A DNA stretch of 25,016 nucleotides, from the IMG/VR virus record IMGVR_UViG_2675903352_000013, positions 1-25,016 of that record; one strand, written 5' to 3'. Position numbers and translations under genes: made by a program. Below, piece by piece: positions 1,675 to 25,016 of this stretch. Positions within the stretch are counted from its first letter, which is position 1, and every line of letters begins with the position of its first letter. This DNA comes from a virus (Duplodnaviria > Heunggongvirae > Uroviricota > Caudoviricetes). A model generated the notes under the pieces. It did no database searches, was not told where the DNA came from, and was given only the letters and a program-made list of their open reading frames with translations.

Positions 1675-3993
1675 TTAAATCCGAAGTGATGTAACTCTTC
1701 CGGTCGGTTTGACAATAGGGAATTGCTTAACAATAAAATAACCTCCGGCATCATTCGGGTGATCGTTGCCAGATTTTTTATCAGGCTCACCCTTATCATC
1801 CCAGACCTGTTGCTCCAGAGATTCGGCATATACCGGACAACGCTTCACATTAACTTTATAGCGACGCTCACCATTGGCATTGCAGAACATTGCATTCATT
1901 GAGTTAACGCGATCTTTTACTGGCGGATTCGAACTGTTTACAACAACGTTAAAACCAGCCTGTTTAAGCTGAGCAATATCCGTCGCACTTGCGTTATTTG
2001 ATTTTCTGGAATCCCCGGATGCATCAGGATAAATATAAATTTCCCTTACTTTCCGATAATCATTCCCGTCATATAACCAGAAGCGCTCTTTAATAATACG
2101 GATCATATCTGGTGTATCGTAAGCGTTAATGATTTCAGTTACTGCGCATGGAAGCCCAAAACGTAACACATGAACGACTCCAGCCATTTTTCCGACGTTA
2201 AAATCCATCCCGATATATATCGGCTCACCTGGCTGTTCCTCTTCTTCGCAATTATTCAGTTTTCGGTCAAACTGATGGTAAACAGTACCACTTGTCAGGT
2301 TAGTAAACTGTCCTCGAAGATAGGCTTTAATCAGCTCTGGAGGATATGACTCAAGGAGCGAGGGAATGTAATCTGCTGGCAAATTCTTTTCATTATCGAA
2401 AGTAGATGCCTGCACCAGACCATACAGTGAGGCCAGCTCTGTTTTTTCACGTACGGCTTTAACAAACTGCTCGTAGACAAATTTGAATCCTTCCGGCGTG
2501 GTTGTAACGTCAATACCGTTACGAAGTCCATCAACCTTATAACGCATACGCGCAATTATCTTGCGCCACGCTGTTCTGGCTTTTTCCTTCGGCAAAATGT
2601 CCAGTTCATCCACCAGCGCATTACCAATTTTGAAACCGACGATCGTTTGCGGCTTCTCCATCGTTCTGCAGATAGTGGTTCCACGATACTGACGTCCGTA
2701 ATAAAAATGAACTTCTTTATTTCCCTCGTTAATTTTTACATTTAGCCCCCAGTCGGCAGCAACTTCTTCAACTGTAGGATAAAAAATATCGCGAATTTGT
2801 GGATATGTAGGCGCAAAATATCCCTGATTTATACCCGGATGCTCCCAAATCCCCTTACATATGCCACCACATCCAACCCATGTTTTACCGCTATTGTGAT
2901 GAATCGTCCCATCAGCAGTTACGTAGCAGTTATTATCCAATACCTGGAGGTCATAATATGGCTCGGCCTTCTGCAACAGTGTTACACTCAATATGTTGCA
3001 GGTTTCGATTAAGGAGTTTGGTTTTGACGCCTCTTGACCGTTTAATTTGTGATTTAGCACATCCAGAACGTACCGTTTCAGAAGTTGCTTCTCTGGCAGG
3101 TTGTGACCGCAGTCATGTTTATCGTTGCATATCTCGTTATGGGTTAACGCTGAAACAACACCAGAAGCCTGTCCCTCGAGAAAGTGCGAAGGACAGAATC
3201 CTCGCTCTTGCTGATGGTCACCGTACGTCGGCAGAGATCGCGGCGGAAGTTGGTTGCACAGAAAAGCACGTTCAAAATATTCTCCGAATTCACAACGCCA
3301 ACCGGCTACCCTGTGGCGCCAGAAAGGGTGAGTTGAACCCCAGCTTTCGTGGTGGTCGAATTGTTGATCTGGATGGATATGCCGTTGTTCCAGCGCCTGC
3401 TGACCATCCATATATGCGCAGAACAGGCATGATGTTTGAACATCGTTTGATCGCTGAAAAGAAGCTGGGGCGTTATCTGCTGCCATCAGAAGTTGTTGAC
3501 CATATAGACGGGCTTCATCTGCATAACACCCCAAGTAATCTGCGAGTTTTTGATTCAAACGTGGATCACCTGCGTGCAACGATTTCGGGACGGCGGCCAA
3601 ACTGGTCAGAAGAAGGTTTTGCGAAGATGCAAATACCTTCACCGATTCGTCCAGACTATCCACAGATCGATAGCTACCGTCAGCGCAAAAAACGCGGTGA
3701 TGTCCGCTTGCTACAAATTCTCCTCGCTGCGTCACTACTCGGTATAGATTCGACACACCTTTTGGGTACGCACCACCACTTAGCGAAAGCTCAAATCGAT
3801 TATTCTCATCCGACCAAGATAAAACGCGCATTGGTCGAGTTATTTCCTGAATGGGTAGAATCCCATTCTCTGTAACCACAGGCGTACTTCCCCTCAGGCA
3901 ACCAAAACCAGCAACATAGGCTTTAAATTTATGAGGCATAGAAAGAAATCGCGCCTGAGGCACATTAAGCGTCGGAGAGATCATCTTCATCAC
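1675..3993 (-). CDS. Terminase large subunit (TerL) carrying an in-frame intein within the Walker A P-loop
   Basis: Continuous 772-aa ORF. N-extein ends KAYVAGFG and C-extein begins SGKTWVGCGG, so removing residues 32..367 restores a canonical P-loop AGFGSGKT. Downstream motifs: Walker B-like NALVDELD, and nuclease-domain acidic motifs IYIGMDFNVGK and YPDASGDS. Start overlaps the putative terS 3' end by 29 nt. Confidence 0.8.
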   Translation of the reverse strand: MMKMISPTLNVPQARFLSMPHKFKAYVAGFGCLRGSTPVVTENGILPIQEITRPMRVLSWSDENNRFELSLSGGAYPKGVSNLYRVVTQRGEFVASGHHRVFCADGSYRSVDSLDESVKVFASSQNLLLTSLAAVPKSLHAGDPRLNQKLADYLGCYADEARLYGQQLLMAADNAPASFQRSNDVQTSCLFCAYMDGQQALEQRHIHPDQQFDHHESWGSTHPFWRHRVAGWRCEFGEYFERAFLCNQLPPRSLPTYGDHQQERGFCPSHFLEGQASGVVSALTHNEICNDKHDCGHNLPEKQLLKRYVLDVLNHKLNGQEASKPNSLIETCNILSVTLLQKAEPYYDLQVLDNNCYVTADGTIHHNSGKTWVGCGGICKGIWEHPGINQGYFAPTYPQIRDIFYPTVEEVAADWGLNVKINEGNKEVHFYYGRQYRGTTICRTMEKPQTIVGFKIGNALVDELDILPKEKARTAWRKIIARMRYKVDGLRNGIDVTTTPEGFKFVYEQFVKAVREKTELASLYGLVQASTFDNEKNLPADYIPSLLESYPPELIKAYLRGQFTNLTSGTVYHQFDRKLNNCEEEEQPGEPIYIGMDFNVGKMAGVVHVLRFGLPCAVTEIINAYDTPDMIRIIKERFWLYDGNDYRKVREIYIYPDASGDSRKSNNASATDIAQLKQAGFNVVVNSSNPPVKDRVNSMNAMFCNANGERRYKVNVKRCPVYAESLEQQVWDDKGEPDKKSGNDHPNDAGGYFIVKQFPIVKPTGRVTSLRI
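2893..3900 (-). other. Intein (Hint domain) inserted in the TerL P-loop, about 336 aa
   Basis: Read directly from the minus-strand translation: block A-like CLRGSTPVVTENGILPIQEI starting with Cys (codon 3900..3898); block B-like GEFVASGHHRVF; block F/G-like YYDLQVLDNNCYVTADGTIHHN followed by +1 Ser (codon 2892..2890). No LAGLIDADG or HNH motif in this frame between the blocks. Confidence 0.7.
2958..3875 (+). CDS. HNH endonuclease (HNH_3-like motif) with two N-terminal HTH-like segments, encoded antisense within the TerL intein
   Basis: Plus-strand ORF (track 2880..3875). ATG at 2958 is preceded by GGAGG at 2946..2950 with a 7-nt spacer. Motif DGYAVVPAPADHPYMRRTGMMFEHRLIAEKKLGRYLLPSEVVDHIDGLHLHNTPSNLRVFDSNVDHL matches the classic phage HNH homing-endonuclease pattern. 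Two HTH-like repeats upstream (RTVSEVASLAGCDRSHVYRCISRYGL and RTSAEIAAEVGCTEKHVQNILRIHNA). The C-terminal ~100 aa may be non-functional read-through constrained by the opposite-strand frame. Confidence 0.6.
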   Translation: MARPSATVLHSICCRFRLRSLVLTPLDRLICDLAHPERTVSEVASLAGCDRSHVYRCISRYGLTLKQHQKPVPRESAKDRILALADGHRTSAEIAAEVGCTEKHVQNILRIHNANRLPCGARKGELNPSFRGGRIVDLDGYAVVPAPADHPYMRRTGMMFEHRLIAEKKLGRYLLPSEVVDHIDGLHLHNTPSNLRVFDSNVDHLRATISGRRPNWSEEGFAKMQIPSPIRPDYPQIDSYRQRKKRGDVRLLQILLAASLLGIDSTHLLGTHHHLAKAQIDYSHPTKIKRALVELFPEWVESHSL

Positions 3994-5059
3994 TCCTCAC
4001 TCTGGCATCAACCACATTAATATTGATCGCCACAGGCTGGGGATGTTCATTACCCTCCACCGTTTCGATCTCTTTGCGCAGTTTCTGGTTTTCCATTCTG
4101 CGCCGTTCAATTTCCAGTTCCTGCAGTCGCTTATCTGCACATAATGCCCCGCCAGCGGAAAGCAAACGCAATAATTCACGCCGGGCGGCAGCTTTATTCT
4201 CCAGCAGGATCTCAACGCCGAATTTTCCGAGCTTTGCTCCTGCATACAATTGCCGCGCATTTCCATCAAGCAAAGTGGTATCAGCCATATAAAGCTGACC
4301 TGTACCTTCTCCACCGCATTTCGGACAGTCTGGATTTGGTATGGCGCTATCAACGAAACCGAGGCCACCATATTCAGGTTCTGGTTTACCATCTTTGGAT
4401 GCCTGCGCGGCAGCCCTGTCAAATTCTGCTATATCGCGCCACTGATAGAGGTGATTCTCCCCCCAGCAATAGCGACAGTTAACACGGCGAAATTGCGCAA
4501 GCTGATTGGGATCAGCCTGCACGATGGCCATCAACTGACTCACCAGTAAATCCAGGTCTGCGGTATAGCGTTTCTGGTAATGATTGCGAAAGTAGCTGAT
4601 GGCACGAAAAACCCTGGCATTTCTAAGCATACGACTGGCATTGCTGTTTGCTGTCGCACCTTGCCCCTCGTAACCAGCCAGGCGGTATGCCTCTGTCGGC
4701 TTTTTCCCCTGAGCAACCAACATGGCGAATTTTGCCTGCTGGTCAGAAATACCGAATTCATCGGGGCAAAACGAAATTTCTTCCGTGTCCCCCTCAATCA
4801 GGAGTGCATCGGATACAGCCTTTTTTTTCTGAGATTTTCCGTTTTGCTTTTGCGCAGTCTGCGCAGTTTTTTTTCGCGCACTTTTTTGCGCAGTTTTGCG
4901 CACTTCTGTCTGCGCATTTTTCGGAGGTTTCTTGATGTAACGACGGGCTGTTGCGTAATTCAGTCCCTTTGCTTCACACCACGCCACCGGAGATACACCG
5001 GAGCGGGTGTATTCAGCAATATATTCCTGCTGCAACGCCCCCCAGTCCGGTCTGCTCAT
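3965..5059 (-). CDS. Putative terminase small subunit / DNA-packaging DNA-binding protein
   Basis: 364-aa ORF with ATG at 5059..5057, immediately upstream of and overlapping TerL. N-terminal HTH-like segment (VSPVAWCEAKGLNYATARRYI), Lys/Gln-rich low-complexity linker, CxxC...CxxC pair, C-terminal coiled-coil-like tail. Assignment rests on synteny and architecture. Confidence 0.45.
   Translation of the reverse strand: MSRPDWGALQQEYIAEYTRSGVSPVAWCEAKGLNYATARRYIKKPPKNAQTEVRKTAQKSARKKTAQTAQKQNGKSQKKKAVSDALLIEGDTEEISFCPDEFGISDQQAKFAMLVAQGKKPTEAYRLAGYEGQGATANSNASRMLRNARVFRAISYFRNHYQKRYTADLDLLVSQLMAIVQADPNQLAQFRRVNCRYCWGENHLYQWRDIAEFDRAAAQASKDGKPEPEYGGLGFVDSAIPNPDCPKCGGEGTGQLYMADTTLLDGNARQLYAGAKLGKFGVEILLENKAAARRELLRLLSAGGALCADKRLQELEIERRRMENQKLRKEIETVEGNEHPQPVAININVVDARVRSDEDDLSDA
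4842..4925. repeat. Array of six (T)GCGCA(G/C)-T-rich direct repeats at roughly helical spacing inside the putative terS gene
   Basis: Sequence ttttgcgcagtctgcgcagttttttttcgcgcacttttttgcgcagttttgcgcacttctgtctgcgcattttt; GCGCA cores near 4852, 4861, 4877, 4888, 4898 and 4911. The corresponding protein segment is a low-complexity K/T/A/Q stretch. Confidence 0.6.
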
Positions 5060-7527: not shown

Positions 7528-7804
7528 CCGCAACAGCCACTTTGATATCTTTCTGGATTCTCTGTGACTCCAGTGCGATCTGCTGTTTTGCATGCTGGTT
7601 AGCCTCTATAACTGTGTTGATGATTTGCAGTGATTGCAGGACGTTACGGGTAATGGCTGTTGCTGATTCAGCATTTCGTACAGCCTCATCAGCGCGCTCC
7701 TTTTCGTGTTGATATTTGCTGTAGTAATGCCCGGCATACCAGATAAAAGAACCGATGACGGTAACAAAGAAGGCAACAATAACCAGCTTATATCTCAGCT
7801 TCAT
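7412..7804 (-). CDS. Rz-like inner-membrane spanin
   Basis: 130-aa ORF, ATG at 7804..7802, overlapping the endolysin 3' end. N-terminal transmembrane helix (LVIVAFFVTVIGSFIW) followed by a predicted coiled-coil periplasmic domain. Confidence 0.6.
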   Translation of the reverse strand: MKLRYKLVIVAFFVTVIGSFIWYAGHYYSKYQHEKERADEAVRNAESATAITRNVLQSLQIINTVIEANQHAKQQIALESQRIQKDIKVAVADDDCAVRIVPSGAVKRLHEYANGIRVGAGGSVTSQSDG

Positions 7805-8264
7805 TTACCACCCCACCAGCTTCTTTAAATCGGGCAATCAGGTCACCGATTCTATGTTCATACTGACCGTAACCAGCGCCCGGCAACGAAGCCCAGATAT
7901 TGCTGCAACGGTCGATTGCCTGACGAATATCGCCGCGGTCAATCATCGGTAATGCGCCACGCTCTTTAATCTGCTGCAGCGCTACAGCATCCTGACTTTC
8001 TGGAGAAAAATCTTTCAGGCCAAGTTGCTTGCGGTAGGCATCCCACCAGCGTGAAAGAAGCTGGTAACGTCCGGCGGCTGTTGATTTGAGTTTCGGATTT
8101 AGCGTGACAAGTTTGCGGGGGTGATCGGAGTAATCAGTGAACAGTTCGCCACCGACAATAACATCATAACCGTGATTTCTGGTTTTCTACCGTCCGTTAT
8201 CCGTTCCTTCTGACCATGCCACCATATCAAGGAAAGCTTTACGCTGGGAATTCAGTGTCTGCAT
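7788..8264 (-). pseudogene. Lambda R-like endolysin (lytic transglycosylase) with an in-frame premature amber codon
   Basis: Minus-strand translation from ATG 8264..8262 reads MQTLNSQRKAFLDMVAWSEGTDNGR, then TAG (plus-strand cta at 8187..8189), then continues in the same frame KTRNHGYDVIVGGELFTDYSDHP...KEAGGVVNEAEI to TAA at 7790..7788. Total 159 codons; closely resembles lambda R as recalled, which has Gln at this position. Confidence 0.75.
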
Positions 8265-13646: not shown

Positions 13647-14393
13647 TCACTTCGTGATTCCTGGCTGGACGACATTCGGGCGCCAGCTTTCCCAGTTAAA
13701 ATTCACCCAGCGTCCGCCGTTCATGGTCATGCGATCCATAATCCGCTCACCGAGCAATGTTTTCATGGCCTCATAGTTCAGGTTTGTCAGCATTCCCACG
13801 CTACGCATCGACGCTGTCCGTCGATCAATAATCTGGTGCAGTACCACCTGCTCGTTTTTCGTCTCACGCTGAATGCCAATTTCATCAAGAACCAGCAGAT
13901 CCACTTCGCACAGTTCCCGCAAAAATTTTTCGCCTGACTGCCCGTCGTCATAGCTGGCGTGCAGGGCACTCATAACATCAGCCACAGTAACCACTATCAC
14001 TGTCTGGCCGTCTTTCAGCAGGCGATTTCCGATAGCCGCCGCCAGATGGTTTTTCCCGGTACCAGGTTTTCCACTGAACGCGAAATTTGTACACCCGGTC
14101 ATCAGTTCATCGGCGATGGATTTTGCCTGGCTTAACGCGTATCGCTGACCGTCGTTCTGCACCTGGTAATTCGCAAACGAGCATTTGCGGTGCAACGGCT
14201 GGATGCCAGAGCGATTCAGGATTTTTTCAACCCGCAACTGACGATTCAGGCGGTTGATCTCCTCGCAACGTTTCTGGCCTTCAGCAAGTTGCCACTCGCG
14301 CCACTCCGCAACCGTTCTGAATGGGGCGGTTACATGTGGTGGGGTCAGTCTGCGGATACGTTCCAAGACGCCTCCTGTCGCAATATTTTTCAT
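13647..14393 (-). CDS. ydaV: DnaC-like helicase loader / replication protein (YdaV-like)
   Basis: 248-aa ORF with ATG at 14393..14391; Walker [16 protein letters not shown] and IstB/DnaC-like organisation; length matches Rac YdaV as recalled. Confidence 0.8.
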
Positions 14394-14399
14394 GGTTCG

Positions 14400-15266
14400 T
14401 TACCCCCTGAAGCCTGGCGGGATCGCACTGTCCGGCAACGAGACGGTGTTAACCTGCCGAGGCAACGTCTCCGGTCGAACGCCTTTCGGCGCGAACAAGC
14501 CCTGGTATTCGTTGGCGATGCTGTGTCGAATCACCTGCTCAGGGGTAAAACCCTGCTGGCGGAATTTTTCCAGTTCCCGTATCGCCCCGTTAGCGCCCTG
14601 CTCCGTTCGAATCGGTTTTCGCAATGCCTGCCTGAACCGGACCCACTCATGCCAGAGTGTTTCCGGCAACCAATCGGGCAACTCAATAGCCTCCGGCTCG
14701 AATTTTTTAGATGCTCGTTTTTGGCGAGGGGGATTTAGGGGGAGATCAGTATTTATATCTTCCTCTTCCTCTTCCTCTGGTAACGCTTTTTGATCCGTTT
14801 GTGTAACGCTGGCAGCGTTACCTTTTCGTTTCAGTTCGCGTATTTTTGTAACCCTCTCGTTTGTAATCGCCCGTTTTTTAGAGCTTTTTCCGTTATGACG
14901 TTCAAAGTTAGGTAGAGAAAGCCCACCGTTATTTTCGACCAGCCATCCAACCTGAATTAACGCATCAGCAAAACCAGCCATAAAAGTGATGCGATCTATT
15001 GCACTTTTTGTAACGCTGCGAGCGTTACACTCTGCGTTACCGTCTATCATTTGTTGATCCGCCCATGCCCAGAAGCGAATGACTTTCCCTAATGCGGCAT
15101 CTGGATCAATATTCAGAATCTCAGCAAGCCTGAATATTTCCGGCTTATCCGGCGTAATAACCTCGAGCTTTATCCAGTTTGAAGCCATATTGTTTTCACC
15201 TTGTAACGCTGTAAGCGTTACATTTAACTGATACCGAACAAAACAGTCCGGCACGATTAATTTCAA
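14400..15266 (-). CDS. ydaU: Replication initiation protein (YdaU-like); start uncertain
   Basis: 288-aa track ORF starting at TTG 15266, abutting the ydaT stop. Alternative ATG at 15188..15186 with SD AAGGTG gives 262 aa. Acidic Glu-run linker; contains three palindromic repeats. Confidence 0.6.
   Translation of the reverse strand: MKLIVPDCFVRYQLNVTLTALQGENNMASNWIKLEVITPDKPEIFRLAEILNIDPDAALGKVIRFWAWADQQMIDGNAECNARSVTKSAIDRITFMAGFADALIQVGWLVENNGGLSLPNFERHNGKSSKKRAITNERVTKIRELKRKGNAASVTQTDQKALPEEEEEEDINTDLPLNPPRQKRASKKFEPEAIELPDWLPETLWHEWVRFRQALRKPIRTEQGANGAIRELEKFRQQGFTPEQVIRHSIANEYQGLFAPKGVRPETLPRQVNTVSLPDSAIPPGFRG
14803..14821. repeat. 19-bp perfect palindrome GTAACGCT-N3-AGCGTTAC, copy 1 (candidate iteron/origin site)
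   Basis: gtaacgct ggc agcgttac; an additional half-site GTAACGCT at 14780..14787. Confidence 0.7.
15010..15028. repeat. 19-bp perfect palindrome GTAACGCT-N3-AGCGTTAC, copy 2
   Basis: gtaacgct gcg agcgttac; extra half-site-like tgcgttac at 15033..15040. Confidence 0.7.
15203..15221. repeat. 19-bp perfect palindrome GTAACGCT-N3-AGCGTTAC, copy 3
   Basis: gtaacgct gta agcgttac; lies between the TTG and ATG candidate starts of ydaU. Confidence 0.7.
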
Positions 15267-15689
15267 TCAATGCACTACGACAGAGTCGCCGGGCGACCCG
15301 CCGCCGCTGAAATGTGCTTTACGATAAACGGCCTGGACTGCATCATCATGCGCATCAATTGCCGTACTCAACGCTTCCTGCGCCGCCAGTAATGCACGGC
15401 GTTCCAGGGTATCGAAGATGCAGAGTCGGTGACGCAGCTCGCGCGGAAGAATTGCCAGAACCGCAGGGATCAGTTTCTGAATTTTTTCCCTTTGGGCTTT
15501 CGTTTCACCTTTCAACCAACGGTGATAGATATTCTGCTGATTGTTCCAGTCCTTGCCAGGCACCAGGGGCAATTCGCCGCCCCCCTGGCGCAGATATTCT
15601 TCAGTAATTGCATTGGCAACCCATGCCTGCCCTTTTTCAGATGCCATGGCCAACAACACTGATTCGATATGCTCATGCCTGATTTTCAT
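15267..15689 (-). CDS. ydaT: YdaT-like protein (putative toxin of the Rac YdaS/YdaT pair)
   Basis: 140-aa ORF, ATG at 15689..15687 overlapping the ydaS stop (ATGA). Sequence MKIRHEHIESVL...QAWVANAITEEYLRQGGGELPLVPGKDWNNQQNIYHRWLKGETK closely matches Rac YdaT as recalled. Confidence 0.75.
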   Translation of the reverse strand: MKIRHEHIESVLLAMASEKGQAWVANAITEEYLRQGGGELPLVPGKDWNNQQNIYHRWLKGETKAQREKIQKLIPAVLAILPRELRHRLCIFDTLERRALLAAQEALSTAIDAHDDAVQAVYRKAHFSGGGSPGDSVVVH

Positions 15690-15928
15690 GAATCAACCGC
15701 TCCTATGCTGTTTTCGCTATGCTTACCGTCTGGGGGGAATACATCGTCAAGTCCACAATGAGCGCCAAGCCGATTAAGGGTAGAAACAATTTTTCTGCAC
15801 TCCTCTAGTCCAGGGGTACGAAAATTTGCTTCGTAATTTGCCAGTCGGCTTTGTATCCACCCTAACTGAACAGCGAGTTGTCTTTGAGACAGACCAAGCT
15901 GTTTTCGATATGTTGAAATTTTGTTCAT
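15686..15928 (-). CDS. ydaS: Cro/YdaS-like HTH (XRE-family) regulator
   Basis: 80-aa ORF, ATG at 15928..15926 with SD GGAGG at a 7-nt spacer; HTH segment LGLSQRQLAVQLGWIQSRLANYE; divergent from the repressor gene. Confidence 0.65.
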   Translation of the reverse strand: MNKISTYRKQLGLSQRQLAVQLGWIQSRLANYEANFRTPGLEECRKIVSTLNRLGAHCGLDDVFPPDGKHSENSIGAVDS

Positions 15929-16024
15929 TGAAAACCTCCGATGACAATTTTAAACACACATTGTGTTATACGATCAAGCTGTTTTGTGTTTTATATAAAT
16001 CACGAATCGTGATACAAGGATGCA
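15929..16024. promoter_or_regulatory. Divergent promoter/operator region between the cro-like and repressor genes
   Basis: Contains ACACA-T-TGTGT inverted repeat (15956..15966), a TTTTGTGTTTT half-site, and a 15-bp perfect palindrome ATCACGAATCGTGAT at about 15999..16013. Confidence 0.5.
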
Positions 16025-16444
16025 ATGGAAAAAGAAAACGAAAAAATTGCCGCTAGTAGGCTCAATGACAAAATTGCAATGCGTCTTAAAGAGCGCAGGC
16101 AGAAGCTCGGTTTATCTCAAGGAAAACTTGCTGAAATCTGCGGATGGACGCAATCGCGTATAGGTAACTATGAGGCGGGCAGCAGAAATGTTGGAGTGCA
16201 TGATGCTGTCGTATTGGGAAAGGCACTTGGCATATCTCCTCCTGAGCTCCTCTTTGGAGAACAGGAATCTTCTGAATTGTGGTTAAATGAATCCCAACGA
16301 AAACTTCTTGAGTTGTTTAACCAGCTACCGGGCTCAGAACAACAACGAATGATTGAGCTATTTGAAGTCCGGCTAAAAGAAATCGATGAGTATGTAGAAA
16401 AATATTTGAGAGGCAGGCTTAAAGATAATCCCCCACCGGAGTAA
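16025..16444 (+). CDS. Prophage repressor, XRE-family HTH (RacR-like position)
   Basis: 139-aa ORF, ATG at 16025 with SD AAGGA; HTH LGLSQGKLAEICGWTQSRIGNYE; no peptidase S24 domain. Confidence 0.7.
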   Translation: MEKENEKIAASRLNDKIAMRLKERRQKLGLSQGKLAEICGWTQSRIGNYEAGSRNVGVHDAVVLGKALGISPPELLFGEQESSELWLNESQRKLLELFNQLPGSEQQRMIELFEVRLKEIDEYVEKYLRGRLKDNPPPE

Positions 16445-16473
16445 TGATCTTGATATCACAGTAATATGCCAAT

Positions 16474-16497
16474 CAGCCCGCTATCAGCGGGCTTTTT
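16474..16497 (+). terminator. Rho-independent terminator downstream of the repressor gene
   Basis: AGCCCGCT-atc-AGCGGGCT followed by TTTTTTGT. Confidence 0.7.
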
Positions 16498-16526
16498 TGT
16501 ACCATCATCATATGACATCCACCACA

Positions 16527-16570
16527 AAACACATTTCGTGTTGACACACGAAAACACATTGTGTTTAATA
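16527..16570 (+). promoter_or_regulatory. Candidate promoter with operator half-sites upstream of ydaF/ydaG
   Basis: AACACA-T-TGTGTT inverted repeat at 16553..16565 and AACAC-N5-GTGTT at about 16528..16543; TTGACA at 16542..16547 with TTTAAT about 17 nt downstream. Confidence 0.4.
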
Positions 16571-16745
16571 AGCATATCCAAACAACGCCCCACCAGAGAA
16601 CGGCAGGACAATACCTTGAGTTATCCAGCCACTGAACAGGGCTAAGTAGCCAGCCTGAGGCATACGAACATGACGGCTGTTGTTGATTGATACAAAGCGC
16701 AGTAGATAAAACGTTCCGCTACCCGGCGTTAATGGGAGAGATAAG

Positions 16746-16880
16746 ATGGTGCATTACGAAGTAGTTCAGTATTTGATGGATTGTTGCGGTATCACTTACA
16801 GCCAGGCTGTGCAGGCTTTACGTAGCAACGACTGGGATCTCTGGCAGGCAGAAGCCTCTATCCGCAACAACAAGATGTGA
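16746..16880 (+). CDS. ydaF: YdaF-like small protein
   Basis: 44-aa ORF below the track cutoff: MVHYEVVQYLMDCCGITYSQAVQALRSNDWDLWQAEASIRNNKM. Confidence 0.55.
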   Translation: MVHYEVVQYLMDCCGITYSQAVQALRSNDWDLWQAEASIRNNKM

Positions 16881-16891
16881 GGGTTTCCAAA

Positions 16892-17047
16892 ATGCAAAAA
16901 ATCGACCTCGGCAACAACGAATCCCTGGTGTGCGGCGTGTTACCCAACCAGGACGGTATGTTCACCACGATGACGTATACCAAAAGCAAAACGTTTAAAA
17001 CCGAAGCTGGTGCCAGCCGATGGTTGGAGAAGCACACAGTAAGCTAA
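16892..17047 (+). CDS. ydaG: YdaG-like small protein
   Basis: 51-aa ORF: MQKIDLGNNESLVCGVLPNQDGMFTTMTYTKSKTFKTEAGASRWLEKHTVS. Confidence 0.55.
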   Translation: MQKIDLGNNESLVCGVLPNQDGMFTTMTYTKSKTFKTEAGASRWLEKHTVS

Positions 17048-17493
17048 CGATTAAAACCTCTACTCCTGCTGTTCCAGAATAACTTCATAAAATGGGAGTA
17101 TTTTTCGGTGACGAGATAATAAGAACAGTTTGCGCTATCACTCTGATGTTGAATGATGCCCTTCCGTTCTAATTTTTTCATAACCGGGTTACGGCAAGGA
17201 GAAATGATAATAAGATTTCCTGTTTTAAGGAAATCTTTAAATACAGCGATTTCTTTCTCAGATAAACGAAGCAATACTCGTTGCTCTGGTAGTAATGAAT
17301 AATGCTTTTGAATATGCGCTCGCAATCTTGAGAAGGAAATGGCGACCACAAAAGAAAAGGCAAAAACGATAATCTGAAACAACCAAGGTATTTCAGTATA
17401 AGTATTGAATGCGACAACAAACTCTTTCGGCATCAACCAGAGAGTGAGGCCAAAAATAATAATCGTGTACATAAGTCTTTCGATGTGGCTCAT
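17044..17493 (-). CDS. sieB: Superinfection exclusion protein B (SieB-like)
   Basis: Track ORF starts at TTG 17499; first in-frame ATG at 17493..17491. Sequence SHIERLMYTIIIFGLTLWLMPKEF...FQIIVFAFSFVVAISFSRL with two transmembrane segments matches SieB as recalled. Confidence 0.7.
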   Translation of the reverse strand: MSHIERLMYTIIIFGLTLWLMPKEFVVAFNTYTEIPWLFQIIVFAFSFVVAISFSRLRAHIQKHYSLLPEQRVLLRLSEKEIAVFKDFLKTGNLIIISPCRNPVMKKLERKGIIQHQSDSANCSYYLVTEKYSHFMKLFWNSRSRGFNR

Positions 17494-17972
17494 TAGCAAA
17501 AAGTTTCAACAATGGAGTAAATACATCCAACATATCAATAACTCTCGACTGTAAGGGTATTGAAATGTTAACACAAGCTCTCGCTGTAGGGGTATAGCAG
17601 AGACCACCGAAGCCCGGAGGTGGTGAAATAAAACCGGGCACAACACGAAGGCGCATTTCCGGTATCCATAAAGAGTCGGTCTTGTCTGTTAAATTTAAAT
17701 GGTGGGAGTGCGCCTCCGGTTGTAAATAACGACATTGCTGTGTGTAGTCCTGGCGGCATCAGTTTTTTCTTGAAGTTTGGCTGATGTCCGCCCTTTTTAA
17801 AGTGAATTTTGTGATGCGGTGAATGCGGCTAAGCGCACGCGGAACAGTTAAAGCTAAAAACAGTGTTATGGGTGGATTCTCTGTATCCGGCGTTAATTGT
17901 TAACTGGTTAACGTCACCTGGAGGCACCAGGCACCGCATCGACAAAATTCATTTGTAAAAATGGAGATAATT

Positions 17973-18194
17973 ATGATTACTCATCACTTCGGAACTGATG
18001 AAATACCACGTCAGTGTGTAACTCCTGGCGATTATGTTCTTCATGAAGGCCGGACATATATCGCCTCGGCAAACAATATAAAAAAGCGAAAACTTTATAT
18101 TCGTAGCCTGACCACAAAAACATGCATTTCTGACTGCATGGTTAAAGTCTTCCTCGGTAGTGATGGTTTACCTGTAAAAGCAGAGTCATGGTGA
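17973..18194 (+). CDS. racC: RacC-like small protein
   Basis: Second ATG at 17973 is preceded by GGAG at a 6-nt spacer; product begins [26 protein letters not shown]. Confidence 0.5.
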
Positions 18195-18364
18195 TGGATA
18201 AGAAAATAAAATGTGCTTACCACCTTTGCAAAAAAGACGTTGAAGAAAGCAAAACTATTGAAAGAATGCTTCATTTCATGCACGGAACTTTATCAAAAGA
18301 CGAACCGAGAAAATATTGCAGTGAAACTTGTGCCGAAAAAGACCAGATGGCACACGAACTTTAA
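18194..18364 (+). CDS. ydaE: YdaE-like zinc-binding small protein
   Basis: 56-aa ORF not in the track: [56 protein letters not shown]; its ATG overlaps the racC-like stop (TGATG). Confidence 0.65.
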   Translation: MDKKIKCAYHLCKKDVEESKTIERMLHFMHGTLSKDEPRKYCSETCAEKDQMAHEL

Positions 18365-18438
18365 TTAACTGACTATTCGAAACTGAATTTATGCCAGCAA
18401 TGGCAGGGATTCGCTCAACCTTAATTAAGGAGAAAAAC

Positions 18439-18714
18439 ATGATTACCAATTATGAAGCCACTGTTGTAACTACTGATGACATTGTTCACGAGGTCAATCT
18501 GGACGGAAAGCGTATTGGCTACGTGATTAAAACAGAAAATAAAGAAACCCCATTCACTGTGGTTGATATCGACGGCCCATCAGGCAACGTTAAAACACTT
18601 CATGAAGGCGTCAAAAAAATGTGCCTGGTGCACATTGGAAATAATCTGCCAGCAGAAAAAAAAGCTGAGTTTCTGGCAACTCTGATTGCAATGAAATTAA
18701 AAGGTGAAATTTAA
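18439..18714 (+). CDS. kilR: KilR-like cell-division (FtsZ) inhibitor
   Basis: ATG at 18439 preceded by AGGAG at a 7-nt spacer; MITNYEATVVTTDDIVHEVNLDGKRIGYVIKTENKETPFTVVDIDGPSGNVKTL... matches Rac KilR as recalled. An upstream in-frame ATG at 18391 lacks an RBS. Confidence 0.75.
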   Translation: MITNYEATVVTTDDIVHEVNLDGKRIGYVIKTENKETPFTVVDIDGPSGNVKTLHEGVKKMCLVHIGNNLPAEKKAEFLATLIAMKLKGEI

Positions 18715-18814
18715 AAAAAAGAAAGCCTGCACAGTGTACAGGCCTGAGTGAAAAACCTGGGACATTTATTCATCACTCGCACTAAATTTTAATCTGAGTT
18801 GAGGTTAAAAAACA

Positions 18815-21800
18815 ATGAGCACTGACAAACAAAATTTTGCGTTACATTGCGACGCGAAAAATGAGGGCGCAAGAAAACGCCTCGGCATCAAAGGCGGCTT
18901 CTTCTGGACAGAGGCAAAAAAACTTTCTGTTGCGGTTTCACGCTGCATTGCTGCAATGGACGATGCAGGCTACGACGAAGATGATTTTAAAAAACCTGTT
19001 CGCGTAAATTTGCCCGTTGTTGATGACCTTCCGCCAGAAGGCGTATTTGATACGGAATTCTGCAACCGTTACGAAAAAGGCGGTGAAGATGGCATTACAA
19101 TGGTATTTATCGCGCCATCACACTCTGTTCAGGACAAACCAGCCAGCACTGACAACACCAACGTCAACGGCGAAGATATGACTGAGATTGAGGAGAATAT
19201 GCTACTCCCGATTTCAGGTCAGATTCTGCCTGTTCGCTGGCTGGCACAGCACAGCAGCGAAAAACCGGTAACGCACGTTTCACGGGAAGAACTGCGCGCA
19301 TTACATAACGCACAGGATGAAAAACTTCCCGCAGTTACAGCGCTGGCCATCTCAAATAAAGCAGCGCAACTCGAACCGCTGGAGATTCGCGATCTCCACA
19401 AACTGGTTCGTGACACTGACAAAGTTTTCCCTAATCCTGGTAATTCAGATCTGGGACTGATGACTGCTTTTTTCGAAGCATACCTGGGCACCGACTACAC
19501 CGATCGAGGTCTGCTGACAAAAGAGTGGATGAAAGGGAATCGTGTTTCACGCATCACCCGCACGCCCTCCGGTGCTAATGCTGGCGGCGGGAACAAAACT
19601 GATCGCGGTGAAGATTTCGTCCACGATCAGGCTTCGCTGGCACGCGATGTTGCGACTGGCATTCTGGCCCGTTCAATGGATGTTGATATTTATAACCTTC
19701 ATCCGGCACACGCTAAACGTATTGATGAAATCATCGCAGAGAATAAGCCGCCCTTTTCTGTTTTCCGTGACATATTCACTGCTATGCCTGGGGGATTGGA
19801 TTATTCCCGCGCCATCGTGGTTGCATCCGTGAAAGAAGCACCTATCGGTATTGAGGTTATTCACGCGCACGTCACTGAATATCTGAACAAGGTGCTGATT
19901 GAAACCAATCACGCCAATCCTGATCAGGAAATCGTGGATATTACTTGCGGCCGTTCCTCAGCCCCAATGCCACAGCGTGATACAGAAGAAGGAAAACAAG
20001 GTGAAGAAAAACCACAACCATCTGGCGCAATGGCAAATGAACAGGCAACGCCTGAAACAGTGGAACCGGATACAACTGAACATCATCAGAACACGCAGTC
20101 GATGGATGCTCAGCCACAGGTAAATTCTGTTGATGCGAAATATCAGGAACTGAGGGCAGAACTCCATGAAGCCCGGAAAAACATTCCGCCCCAAAATCCT
20201 GTCGATGCAGACAAATTACTGGCTGCCTATCGCGGAGAATTTGTTGAAGGGATTAGCGACCCGAATGATCCGAAATGGGTTAAGGGGATCCAGACTCGCG
20301 ATTCTGTGTACCAGCATCAGCCAGAAACGGAACAGAACGACCAGAAAGCTGAACAGAACAGCCCAAATACGCAACAAAACGAGCCAGAAACGAAACAGTC
20401 TGAGCCAGTAGTGCAACAACAGGAAACGGAGAAAGTTTGCACCGCCTGCGGTCAGGCTGGAGGAAATAGCTGCCCTGACTGTGGTGCAGTGATGGGAGAC
20501 GCAACGTATCAGGAAACCTTTAATGAAGAAAATATGGATGAATCTCAGGAAAAAGATTCGGAGAAAATGGAAGACGATAAACATCCGCACAAGGAAAACA
20601 CTGGCAACCATCCGCATCACAATTGCAGTGATGAAACTGGTGAAGCGTCAGCTCCTGTAGCAACTGAAATCATGTGGCCGTCATATTTCGAGCCTGGTCG
20701 CTATGAAAACCTCCCGAACGAGGTTTATCACGCCGCCAACGGAATAAGCAGCACGATGCTGAAGGATGCCCGTATCAGTTTGATGTATTACCACGGGCGG
20801 CACATTGCCGGAACTATTCCGTGTGAAGAAAGTGATGCATTGCTACGTGGGCGGATCATTCACAGCTATGTTCTGGAAACGGATAAATTCTCTGATGAAT
20901 ATGCCATTCCGGTACCGGTTCCTGAAGATGTGGTTGCCACTTCTCAAGAACTGATCGCCATTATTAAAAAACACAATGCCAGTTTGCCAGCACTGATGAC
21001 GCCAGAGCAGATAAAAGAGTGGATCGAAAACTACAACAGCACTCTTATTCAGCCACTGTCGGTAAGTGCTGGAGCCGAAGAAACAGGCATTCTTTACGGC
21101 TCGCTCCCGGAGGAATTCCGGCGTATTCCAGAAGGAGAAAAACACACTGCATCAGCAATGAAAGCCTGTATTAAAGAATACAACGCAAGCCTCCCCTCTC
21201 TACTGAAAACCAGTGGAACACGGGAGCAACTTCTGGAGCAAATTGAAACTGTAGATCCAGAACTGGCAAAAAAGAACGGGCTAAATCTTTGCCTTACAAC
21301 ATCAGTGGTACAAAAGAGCAATTAACCGAAATCGCCCGGAAAATTCGCCCGGAACTGGTAACACTGGAGGACTGGCAAAAACGCCAGCAAGAAGAAAATG
21401 CAGGAAAAACGTTTATCAGTCCAGATATGTATGAACAGGCAAAAAATATTCACGCGGCACTGCAAAACAATACTGACGCGGCAAGACTACTCAACCACCC
21501 GGATCGCAAATCTGAAATCAGCTATTTCGGGTTTGATGAAGAAACCGGGCTGGAAATCAGGGTCCGCCCTGATATCGAAATCCGACTGCCATACGAAAGC
21601 ATCTGCGCCGACGTGAAATCAGTAAGCTTCGGTTATGTGCGGCAAGAACGACTAAAAGATCGCTTACACCGTGAAATTATTGAACGTGATTATCACCTGA
21701 GCGCCGCAATGTACTGCGATGTGGCAAACCTGGATAAATTTTTCTGGGTCTTCGTCAATAAGGATGCTGGCTATCACTGGGTGGCAGTTGTGGAAGCTTC

Positions 21801-21960
21801 GCAGGAACTCCTTGAACTTGGTCGCCAGGAGTATCGCCGGACGCTACGCCAGATAAACGAAGCTCTGGAGACAAACAACTGGCCAGCACCAATTACCGAA
21901 AGTTATACCGACGAATTAAACGACTTTGATCTTCGTCGTCTTGAAGCACTGAGCATCTGA
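18815..21960 (+). pseudogene. recE: RecE (exonuclease VIII) homologue, apparently split by a frameshift into 836-aa and 223-aa ORFs
   Basis: N-terminal and central regions strongly resemble Rac RecE as recalled. The nuclease domain begins in ORF1 ([15 protein letters not shown]...[12 protein letters not shown]) and continues in ORF2 (RPDIEIRLPYE...DVKSV), which has no ATG (TTG at 21289); the frames overlap at 21247..21325. Confidence 0.7.
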
Positions 21961-23024: not shown

Positions 23025-23088
23025 TATTTACCATGGCGGTGTAGCCTCGCCGCCATCGCAAAATTATATATTTATGAGAGAAAAGACA

Positions 23089-23283
23089 ATGCGATATGAA
23101 AAAGTTAAGCCATGTCCGTTTTGTGGTTGTCCATCTGTAACAGTGAAAGCCATTTCAGGGTATTACCGGGCAAAATGCAACGGCTGCGAATCCCGAACTG
23201 GCTATGGTGGAAGTGAGAAAGAAGCCCTCGAAAGATGGAATAAACGAACCGCTGAAAATATTAATGGAGGCATCTATGTATAA
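23089..23283 (+). CDS. ralR: Restriction alleviation protein RalR (Lar)
   Basis: 64-aa product from the second ATG: MRYEKVKPCPFCGCPSVTVKAISGYYRAKCNGCESRTGYGGSEKEALERWNKRT..., matching Rac Lar as recalled. Confidence 0.8.
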   Translation: MRYEKVKPCPFCGCPSVTVKAISGYYRAKCNGCESRTGYGGSEKEALERWNKRTAENINGGIYV

Positions 23284-23464
23284 AATTACCGCCACAATTG
23301 AAAAGGAAGGTGGTACTCCTACTAACTGGACAAGATATTCAAAATCTAAACTAACGAAATCAGAATGCGAAAAAATGCTCTCAGGGAAAAAAGAAGCAGG
23401 CGTTTCCAGAGAGCAAAAAGTAAAACTGATGAATTTTAATTGCGAGAAACTTCAGTCCTGGTAA
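23276..23464 (+). CDS. ydaC: YdaC-like small protein
   Basis: ATG at 23276 preceded by GGAGG at a 6-nt spacer; overlaps the ralR stop; product MYKITATIEKEGGTPTNWTRYSKSKLTKSECEKMLSGKKEAG... Confidence 0.6.
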   Translation: MYKITATIEKEGGTPTNWTRYSKSKLTKSECEKMLSGKKEAGVSREQKVKLMNFNCEKLQSW

Positions 23465-23563
23465 GTTGCATTGTATTCAAATTAAAACTTCATAGCTGAT
23501 TATTAATAATCAACGCCGGGCGTCAATTTCTGTCTAATATTGTCGCCCGCCAGAGGTGATGCG

Positions 23564-23779
23564 ATGGCACAAGTGATCTTTAATGAAGAGTGGATGGTTG
23601 AATACGGTCTGATGCTTCGTACTGGTCTGGGGGCCAGACAAATTGAAGCATATCGCCAGAACTGTTGGGTGGAAGGCCTCCACTTCAAACGAGTATCTCC
23701 TTTAGGTAAGCCAGACAGCAAGCGAGGGATTATCTGGTACAACTATCCGAAGATAAATCAGTTTATCAAAGACTCATAA
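23564..23779 (+). CDS. xisR: Excisionase (XisR/YdaQ-like)
   Basis: Track ORF starts at TTG 23540; ATG at 23564 is preceded by AGGTG. 71-aa product [44 protein letters not shown]...; stop abuts the integrase ATG. Confidence 0.75.
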
Positions 23780-23780
23780 T

Positions 23781-25016
23781 ATGTCTAAATTACCAACAGG
23801 TGTCGAGATTCGAGGTAAATACATTCGCATCTGGTTCATGTTTCGAGGGAAACGATGTCGGGAAACATTGAAAGGCTGGGAGGTTACTAACAGTAACATT
23901 AAAAAGGCCGGGAGTTTAAGAGCATTGATAGTTCACGAAATAAATTCCGGCGAGTTCGAGTATTTAAGACGTTTTCCCCAGTCCAACACCGGGGCAAAAA
24001 TGGTGACAACGAGGGTCATAAAAACATTCGGAGAGCTTTGTGATATCTGGACAAAAATTAAAGAGACAGAGTTAACAACAAACACAATGAAGAAAACAAA
24101 ATCACAATTAAAAACCCTCAGGATAATCATTTGCGAGAGTACCCCAATATCACATATTCGTTATAGCGATATCTTAAGCTACCGAAATGAACTGCTGCAT
24201 GGAGAAACGCTTTACCAGGATAATCCAAGAGTCAACAAAAAAGGAAGAACCGTGCGCACAGTTGATAACTATATCGCCCTGCTATGTTCGTTGTTACGTT
24301 TTGCGTATCAGTCGGGATTTATATCAACCAAACCATTTGAAGGAGTAAAAAAATTACAGCGAAACAGAATAAAGCCTGATCCGTTATCTAAAACAGAATT
24401 CAATGCATTAATGGAAAGAGAAAAAGGACAGAGTCAAAACTTGTGGAAATTTGCTGTTTACTCCGGGCTTCGTCACGGGGAACTGGCAGCCCTGGCGTGG
24501 GAGGATGTGGATTTCGAGAAGGGAATTGTGAATGTCAGAAGAAACCTGACGATACTTGATATGTTCGGTCCTCCAAAAACAAATGCCGGGATCCGAACGG
24601 TAACATTACTGCAGCCTGCTCTTGAAGCACTGAAGGAGCAATACAAACTGACCGGACATTATCGCAAAAGCGAAATCACCTTTTATCATCGGGAGTATGG
24701 CAGAACCGAAAAGCAAAAACTGCATTTTGTTTTCATGCCCAGGATGTGTAACGGAAAACAAAAACCTTATTACTCGGTAAGCAGTTTGGGGGCGAGATGG
24801 AATGCAGCAGTAAAACGTGCTGGTATTCGCCGCCGTAATCCGTACCATACGCGACATACTTTTGCCTGTTGGCTGTTGACGGCAGGAGCGAACCCGGCAT
24901 TTATAGCCAGCCAGATGGGGCATGAAACTGCGCAGATGGTGTATGAAATTTACGGTATGTGGATTGATGACATGAACGACGAACAGGTAGCCATGTTGAA
25001 TGCGCGGTTATCGTAG
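23781..25016 (+). CDS. intR: Tyrosine-recombinase integrase (IntR-like), complete, ending at the window edge
   Basis: 411-aa ORF with ATG at 23781 and TAG at 25014..25016. N-terminus MSKLPTGVEIRGKYIRIWFMFRGKRCRETLKGW and C-terminal catalytic region HTRHTFACWLLTAGANPAFIASQMGHE match Rac IntR as recalled. Confidence 0.9.
   Translation: MSKLPTGVEIRGKYIRIWFMFRGKRCRETLKGWEVTNSNIKKAGSLRALIVHEINSGEFEYLRRFPQSNTGAKMVTTRVIKTFGELCDIWTKIKETELTTNTMKKTKSQLKTLRIIICESTPISHIRYSDILSYRNELLHGETLYQDNPRVNKKGRTVRTVDNYIALLCSLLRFAYQSGFISTKPFEGVKKLQRNRIKPDPLSKTEFNALMEREKGQSQNLWKFAVYSGLRHGELAALAWEDVDFEKGIVNVRRNLTILDMFGPPKTNAGIRTVTLLQPALEALKEQYKLTGHYRKSEITFYHREYGRTEKQKLHFVFMPRMCNGKQKPYYSVSSLGARWNAAVKRAGIRRRNPYHTRHTFACWLLTAGANPAFIASQMGHETAQMVYEIYGMWIDDMNDEQVAMLNARLS

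Follow-up and report, generated by a model that had tools for sequence, protein, structure and literature searches.

Two small minus-strand genes lie divergent to a repressor gene in the window, the whole 25,016-nucleotide (nt) stretch analyzed here (positions 1 to 25,016 of the virus record IMGVR_UViG_2675903352_000013). The locus raises the question of whether they form a toxin-antitoxin pair or the lytic side of a phage switch. The open reading frame (ORF) at 15686-15928 encodes an 80-amino-acid (aa) helix-turn-helix (HTH) protein, and the ORF at 15267-15689 encodes YdaT, a protein of 140 aa. In a first-pass annotation the genes had been called a YdaS/YdaT-like toxin-antitoxin-type pair. 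Our analysis indicates that the pair is very probably the rightward early operon of a prophage immunity region and that it encodes Cro- and CII-type regulators. The prophage belongs to Escherichia coli; it is lambdoid, Rac-like, and heteroimmune, and it has partly decayed. The immunity type is uncharacterized but common, and the locus is a lambdoid CI/Cro/CII-analog switch built around YdaT, which is a known kind of system.

The gene layout agreed with the first-pass annotation. Both reading frames were present, and direct reading of the sequence showed the reported ATGA overlap at 15686-15689, where the stop codon of the 80-aa cro gene overlaps the ydaT start. Translational coupling through this overlap is possible, and a Shine-Dalgarno motif, AGGAG, is located 10 nt upstream of the ydaT ATG. 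The pair is indeed divergent from a repressor gene, which encodes a 139-aa HTH protein on the plus strand at 16025-16444. The order repressor, cro, ydaT, O-like gene, and DnaC-like gene is that of lambda; as expected of a lambdoid phage, the CII-type gene stands between cro, which it directly follows, and the replication genes. The features to which the text refers are as follows, with the evidence in parentheses.

15686-15928, minus strand: Cro-type HTH regulator, 80 aa (ORF, HTH_3 match, and annotated Cro relatives)
15267-15689, minus strand: YdaT, 140 aa, predicted functional analog of lambda CII (PF06254, phrog_163, and identity to Rac YdaT)
15686-15689, minus strand: ATGA overlap of the cro stop and the ydaT start (sequence)
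15679-15696: YdaT-box (one mismatch to the published operator)
15718-15723, plus strand: candidate -10 hexamer, TATGCT, of a YdaT-dependent promoter of the repressor-establishment (PRE) type (conserved offset)
15953-16013: right operator (OR) region with two 15-bp palindromic operators (pattern search and shuffles)
16025-16444, plus strand: CI-type repressor, 139 aa (HTH_3 and DicA-like layout)
16475-16498, plus strand: predicted intrinsic terminator after the repressor gene (terminator prediction)
16528-16569, plus strand: left operator (OL) and leftward promoter (PL) region, two operators flanking a candidate PL (palindromes and promoter match)
15696-16585: immunity cassette containing cro, OR, repressor, terminator, and OL/PL (blastn against Rac)
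23496-23513: second YdaT-type box, candidate analog of the lambda integrase promoter PI (one mismatch to the operator)
14400-15266, minus strand: O-like initiator YdaU (phrog_2509 at 3e-89)
13647-14393, minus strand: DnaC-like loader YdaV (phrog_50 at 3.6e-85 and NF009043 at 1e-153)

The downstream gene is YdaT-like, as annotated. Its product is 94% identical to the YdaT of K-12 Rac in a pairwise alignment and passes the family threshold of PF06254 (YdaT; 43.3 bits against a cutoff of 21). The protein also matches phrog_163 (CII-like transcriptional activator) at 3e-36, and the solved YdaT homologs PDB 3c4r and 8bt1 match it over its full length (8bt1 at 9e-7). YdaT has been shown to be a DNA-binding tetramer with a POU-like HTH fold, and its operator has been mapped (Prolic-Kalinsek et al., PMC9986795). 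Wons et al. mapped the YdaT sites in Rac, and mutation showed the roles of the recognition-helix residues H56 and R57 and of the tetramerization residues L107 and A110 in Rac YdaT (PMC11879457). These four residues and W58, also in the recognition helix, are unchanged between Rac YdaT and the YdaT of the window, and R57 and W58 are invariant across 17 diverse YdaT homologs. By homology, the 140-aa protein is a genuine YdaT, a tetrameric analog of lambda CII. YdaT homologs have already been labeled CII by phage annotators.

The partner protein does not belong to the YdaS family (PF15943/COG4197), and the label "YdaS-like" that had been given to it was not supported. BLASTP of the 80-aa protein against Rac YdaS gave no alignment, and PF15943 was absent from its Pfam matches at an E value of ≤0.01, while Rac YdaS itself scores 107.7 bits. 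The protein resembles annotated Cro proteins instead: it matches HTH_3 (PF01381) at 6.7e-10 and PDB 28tn_A (lambda repressor-like protein) at 8e-15, and it is 54% identical over its full length of 80 aa to the Cro proteins of functional lambdoid phages, namely those of the Shiga toxin 1 (Stx1) phage VT1-Sakai, of mEpX1, and of phiSTEC801-Stx1a. The genes of VT1-Sakai and mEpX1 occupy the same genomic position, and their products are Cro by annotation, not by experiment. Among 17 YdaT partners compared by BLASTP (E value of ≤1e-3), the 80-aa protein was the one that was unlinked to the others. These matches class it as a Cro-type lytic-switch regulator of the XRE/HTH_3 type, outside the YdaS family. 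The 139-aa repressor matches HTH_3 at 4.7e-13 and the DicA model NF007257 at 57.2 bits, which is below the cutoff and covers residues 15 to 133. It consists of an N-terminal HTH and a DicA-like C-terminal part and has no similarity to RacR.

The boundaries of the exchanged DNA were found by blastn of the window against K-12 Rac. Homology was detected at 15269-15695 (ydaT) and at 16586-18822 but not between them, and because this gap lies between Rac-homologous flanks, 15696-16585 is a replaced immunity cassette, which stands in the place of racR-ydaS of Rac. The cassette recurs with 97.6% identity in 152 complete genomes of E. coli, and one of its carriers is an O157:H7 prophage that occupies another attachment site. 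The exact sequences of all three proteins are present on many public E. coli contigs. Three copies of the palindrome pattern A.CAC.....GTG.T are present in the window, at 15953, 15999, and 16528, all within the cassette; shuffled sequences gave a mean of 0.36 occurrences, with a probability of 0.004 for three or more. The first two are the OR operators between the divergent genes, AACACACATTGTGTT (15953-15967) and ATCACGAATCGTGAT (15999-16013). The third, AACACATTTCGTGTT (16528-16542), and a fourth, perfect palindrome, AAACACATTGTGTTT (16552-16566), are the operators at OL/PL. With its OR operators between the repressor gene and a divergently transcribed cro, and with further operators at PL, the cassette is built like a lambdoid immunity region.

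Candidate promoters were located at both operator sets. The candidate rightward promoter (PR) is TTGATC-17-TTTAAA on the minus strand (15977 to 15949), with the first operator in its spacer. The candidate PL, TTGACA (16541-16546)-17-TTTAAT (16564-16569), is flanked by operators and would drive the plus-strand genes ydaG/ydaF, kil, recET, xis, and int. A consensus promoter tool applied to 15000-16700 returned no plus-strand promoters. The sole minus-strand promoter that this tool placed near cro was rejected as PR, as its -10 falls inside the coding region. Rfam detected no known RNA families in or near 15267-16600.

The site that joins the cassette to the Rac-type DNA is the YdaT-box. On the minus strand this box, TTGATTCATGAAAATCAG (15679-15696), has one mismatch to TTGATT-N6-AATCAA and contains the ydaT ATG within its 6-nt spacer. 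It sits at the mosaic joint, and the homology among five cassette types starts at its left edge. The Rac box, ATGATTCATGAAAATCAA, likewise holds the ydaT ATG in its spacer, and the boxes of Rac and CP-933P have been footprinted (PMC11879457, PMC9986795).

To this box we compared 233 loci encoding YdaT homologs of 43 to 99% identity, gathered from IMG/VR and GTDB genomes; a narrower YdaT alignment search of the genome collection gave 13 loci. The box was found over the ydaT ATG in all 233 loci. When the 60 nt beyond the box were clustered at under 60% identity, 17 distinct contexts were obtained. On the strand reading towards the repressor, the distance from the box start to the start of a TANNNT hexamer is 38 or 39 nt in 16 contexts, and the last context has CAAAAT in place of the hexamer. 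At any other offset, TANNNT occurred at most once among the 17 contexts. The hexamer of the window is TATGCT at 15718-15723 on the plus strand, and that of K-12 Rac is TATGAT, which spans 28 to 33 nt upstream of the ydaT ATG. The spacing constraint acts on the DNA, because the hexamer spans differing codons and frames of unrelated Cro C termini or, in Rac, noncoding DNA. With the -10 placed at the hexamer, the box center is near -41.5 to -42.5, which corresponds to an activator overlapping the -35 region. The same geometry of box and -10 was found in mEp237, Klebsiella phage 5 LV-2017, Kp4882-1, and Rac-SA53, and it fits a CII-type PRE promoter that would read antisense through cro towards the repressor. 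In the window, TATGCT belongs to a short direct repeat, CTATGCT, and occurs twice, 14 nt apart (15704-15709 and 15718-15723, plus strand); of these, the second alone is at the conserved offset.

Published data on the promoter differ between systems. In CP-933P, the YdaT-activated PRE was located at the ydaS/ydaT junction by Jurenas et al. (PMC8630535), and the YdaT proteins of both Rac and CP-933P activate a reverse promoter in a box-dependent manner. Several observations weigh against a lambda-like switch with a promoter next to the box. In Rac, PracR4, a promoter some 190 bp from the box, was credited with the box-dependent, 29-fold activation by YdaT. A relaxed sigma-70 scan of the antisense strand of five cro types for a promoter of this kind gave only weak candidates, whose distances were inconsistent (194, 234, 158, and 294 nt), and it missed PracR4 itself. 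PR and the repressor-maintenance promoter (PRM) match the consensus weakly. A search of the 139-aa repressor found HTH domains but no S24 peptidase domain, so the RecA-cleavable domain is absent. The prophage is also defective, and selection may therefore no longer maintain the phage role of the switch. A repressor without S24 is an exception to the lambdoid rule that RacR, PaaR2, and DicA share. The comparison of contexts favors a box-adjacent promoter over a distant one of the PracR4 type, without proving it. The fixed spacing from box to -10 across genera is modestly new, as is the second box described next, and the two raise the question of the true location of the Rac PRE.

The operator search gave two one-mismatch matches in the window, the second of which is CTGATTATTAATAATCAA at 23496-23513. 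On the plus strand, offset 39 is occupied by TAATAT (23535-23540), and xis (ATG at 23565) and int (23781-25016) follow downstream. On the minus strand, TACAAT lies at offset 38 (23475 to 23470), just upstream of the gene for the antitoxin small RNA (sRNA) RalA (Rfam RF02694, 209 bits, 23282-23460, minus strand). This arrangement is kept in Rac of K-12, where the box is upstream of xisR, and in Rac-SA53. In an O157 prophage, the homology stops right past the box and a nonhomologous xis-int module follows, with TATATT still at offset 38. The second box looks like an analog of the CII-dependent PI promoter of lambda, at which YdaT would bind. It is undescribed in the searchable literature, including papers that name both YdaT and xisR, and the accessible text of the Rac papers gives YdaT sites only at the racR-ydaS intergenic region, the YdaT-box, and the host gene rcsA. 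Together with the fixed spacing, the second box allows a CII-like regulon to be mapped concretely in Rac-type phages. Beside RalA, a plus-strand ORF of 69 aa (23074-23283) occupies the ralR position of Rac in a Rac-homologous region. If this ORF is ralR, the window holds a genuine type I toxin-antitoxin system, elsewhere than at cro/ydaT.

We tentatively propose, with slightly less than even confidence, that YdaT is a portable, immunity-independent establishment module. Its box would be a class-II-type site near -41.5 of an adjacent promoter (rather than PracR4), and the second box would let YdaT turn on xis-int and RalA from a bidirectional pair of promoters, analogous to lambda PI. If true, this would account for the ability of a single YdaT to work alongside Cro genes from several unrelated families.

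From the genes, operators, and boxes described above, we infer that the switch would work as follows. The 80-aa Cro would compete with the 139-aa CI-type repressor for the OR palindromes and probably for those at OL. Upon derepression or infection, PR would transcribe cro, ydaT, ydaU, and ydaV. YdaT would then bind the inverted repeat at 15679-15696 over its own start codon and, overlapping the -35 region, would activate a weak antisense promoter with its -10 at 15718-15723. The antisense transcript would run through cro into the repressor gene, like that from lambda PRE. At the second box (23496-23513), YdaT probably switches on xis-int, in the manner of lambda PI, and the RalA sRNA.

The locus can be compared with three characterized switches. 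K-12 Rac shares with it a nearly identical YdaT, the box over the ydaT ATG, the second box upstream of xisR, and the same flanks, with ydaU/ydaV on one side and ydaG/ydaF/sieB/kil/recET/ralR/xis/int on the other. In contrast, the repressor and Cro are unrelated (window positions 15696-16585) and the operators are different; cro and ydaT overlap by ATGA in the window but are separated by a 22-nt gap between the corresponding genes in Rac, and the N-terminal part of ydaU is swapped in the window. Unlike Rac, the window prophage still carries Q, lysis, and packaging genes. The paaR2/ydaS-ydaT region of CP-933P (E. coli O157:H7) also has a CI-like, noncleavable repressor, a Cro-like protein, a CII-like YdaT, and a TTGATT-N6-AATCAA box at the ydaS/ydaT junction with a YdaT-activated PRE. 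The YdaT proteins of CP-933P and Rac are about 30% identical according to the papers. CP-933P differs in that a paaA2-parE2 toxin-antitoxin pair is located behind its repressor, where the window has none, and in that its Cro is described as YdaS-like, whereas the Cro of the window is of the HTH_3 type.

In lambda, the CII site TTGC-N6-TTGC lies within the first cII codons. The cI-cro-cII region of lambda has its activator site in the 5' end of the activator's own gene, overlapping the -35 of an antisense promoter, and a second activator-dependent promoter for int, both as predicted for the window; the gene order and the divergent promoters are the same. The immunity swap between lambda and 434 is likewise an exchange of a block of cI, cro, and operators adjoining a shared cII-type gene. 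However, there is no nutR/tR1 spacer between cro and ydaT in the window, the repressor lacks an S24 domain, and the operator search found no PaQ-type box in or near Q.

The inheritance of the pair bears directly on the toxin-antitoxin label. At least five different genes, of four or more Pfam types, stand upstream of YdaT proteins that are at least 94% identical; among these loci, a change of cassette type replaces both the upstream gene and the repressor, and the joint is at the box between the two genes. Across the wider YdaT family, the partners are YdaS-type (PF15943), P22-Cro-type (PF14549), HTH_17-like, or plain HTH_3 proteins. The partner therefore travels with the repressor and operators and not with YdaT, which argues against a cognate toxin-antitoxin pair. 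Co-inheritance of a toxin with its antitoxin, as expected of a type II system, was not observed, and neither was a recognized toxin fold or activity, the closest structures being 3c4r and 8bt1. PADLOC gave no match for YdaT and only generic HTH matches for Cro and the repressor.

It is extremely unlikely that the genes form a type II module in which YdaT is the toxin, the upstream HTH protein is the antitoxin, and the repressor adds further control. The overlap of a small HTH gene with another small gene resembles the layout of such modules, Pfam and NCBI still name PF06254 "toxin YdaT," and the 80-aa protein has weak, subthreshold similarity to the HipB, MqsA, and Y4mF antitoxin models. However, the fold of YdaT is that of a POU-like HTH protein that binds DNA, its operator is defined, and a cognate pair should be co-inherited, whereas here one YdaT has many partner types with the joint exactly between the genes. 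Support for a toxin also comes from Rac, where racR is deletable only in a strain lacking ydaST and YdaT kills when overexpressed. Such a deletion test, which the first-pass annotation had also suggested for this locus, would be nondiagnostic here, because derepression would also turn on kil, the replication genes, and the Q-dependent holin; with these and other genes present, loss of the repressor is probably lethal for several reasons. In CP-933P, where regulation and bistability were studied, YdaT was nontoxic and the pair was concluded not to be a toxin-antitoxin system (Jurenas et al., PMC8630535). Jobling argued in 2018 that YdaS and YdaT are homologs of Cro and CII, and a 2010 study, as it is cited there, found no evidence of a toxin-antitoxin pair (PMC5917428). 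Given a DNA-binding tetramer, an interchangeable Cro partner, and published work rejecting the label, the designation of the genes as a toxin-antitoxin-type pair is not supported. Correcting this annotation is the main value of the analysis, since the labels "toxin YdaT" and "YdaS/YdaT toxin-antitoxin" are still propagated and are misleading; the general picture of lambdoid switches is unchanged by this locus.

The first-pass annotation had further suggested that the pair doubles as the lytic-switch Cro and a growth inhibitor. The Cro part of this suggestion is supported, and the toxicity part is plausible for YdaT but not for its partner. Overexpression of Rac YdaT kills E. coli independently of other Rac genes (PMC11879457), and with 94% identity and intact recognition residues, it is reasonable to expect that the YdaT of the window would be toxic on overexpression. 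The reported toxicity of YdaS is not transferable, because the Cro of the window is not a YdaS homolog. The killing by Rac YdaT has been linked to its activation of the host gene rcsA, and Rac YdaT also remodels the envelope, motility, and division; the YdaT of CP-933P is without action on rcsA. Growth inhibition by YdaT in this host would be an overdose side effect of a transcription factor on host promoters rather than the action of a toxin held by an antitoxin. These host effects could instead be a selected function, with the switch genes co-opted and kept by the host mainly because YdaT (acting at rcsA and other host promoters) and the repressor would supply a conditional growth arrest or stress program. 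The action of Rac YdaT on rcsA and cell physiology would suit this explanation, as would the retained recognition residues and the finding that three ORFs are intact and widespread in E. coli though endolysin and recE are broken. We nevertheless regard it as unlikely, as the conserved features are of the phage type (PRE geometry across genera and in intact phages, and a box upstream of xis-int) and the YdaT of CP-933P is inactive on rcsA. Inactivating lesions in endolysin and recE might also suggest an inert remnant, in which the genes are intact by chance, never expressed, and now functionless. This is very unlikely: no lesion affects the three regulators, the four operators, either box, or the terminator, the cassette is highly conserved among the 152 E. 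coli genomes, and a repressed prophage with kil, holin, and replication genes needs a working repressor. A Cro/CII-type phage switch remains the explanation that we prefer.

The gene content of the rest of the window is also that of a Rac-like lambdoid prophage, which runs opposite to Rac of K-12. The plus strand carries a DUF1391 gene (ydaF-like), kil, recE, recT, and int, with sieB among them but on the minus strand; ydaT, ydaU, ydaV, Q, and the holin, spanin, terminase, and portal genes are on the minus strand. Kil is 90% identical to KilR. The first-pass annotation had described complete replication, lysis, and packaging modules. The replication and packaging genes are present, but the lysis module is not complete. 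The endolysin gene (approximately 7788-8264, minus strand) encodes a homolog of the lambda R lysozyme (PDB 1am7, 1e-95) in which Gln26 is changed to an in-frame stop, and the lysis cassette is therefore broken. Pfam assigned no family to the read-through translation of this gene, and the lambda lysozyme was identified by a PDB sequence search. The recE gene is split by an apparent frameshift, with overlapping plus-strand ORFs at 18815-21325 and 21289-21960 that match positions 1 to 704 and 693 to 880, respectively, of one exonuclease VIII family. In ydaU, DNA homology to K-12 Rac is confined to the C-terminal part and is missing from the N-terminal part (14762-15268, minus strand), with which replication-origin specificity may have been exchanged.

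Further observations concern individual ORFs and database records. At its C terminus, the minus-strand ORF at 11088-11360 matches a host-killing family of the Mok/Hok type (phrog_251, 1e-32); it may be a second type I toxin locus. The terminase ORFs at 1675-3993 and 3965-5059 (minus strand) are atypical: only residues 366 to 769, approximately, of the 772-aa large subunit match terminase families, and the small-subunit ORF is unusually long at 364 aa. The contig JARKOR010000130.1, binned as "Candidatus Nanosynbacter," contains a Rac-type ydaT region 94% identical to the query, and the "Actinobacillus phage" record PP818812.1 contains a Cro 100% identical to the E. coli one together with Rac-like genes. 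Both records look like E. coli-derived sequence under other organism names.

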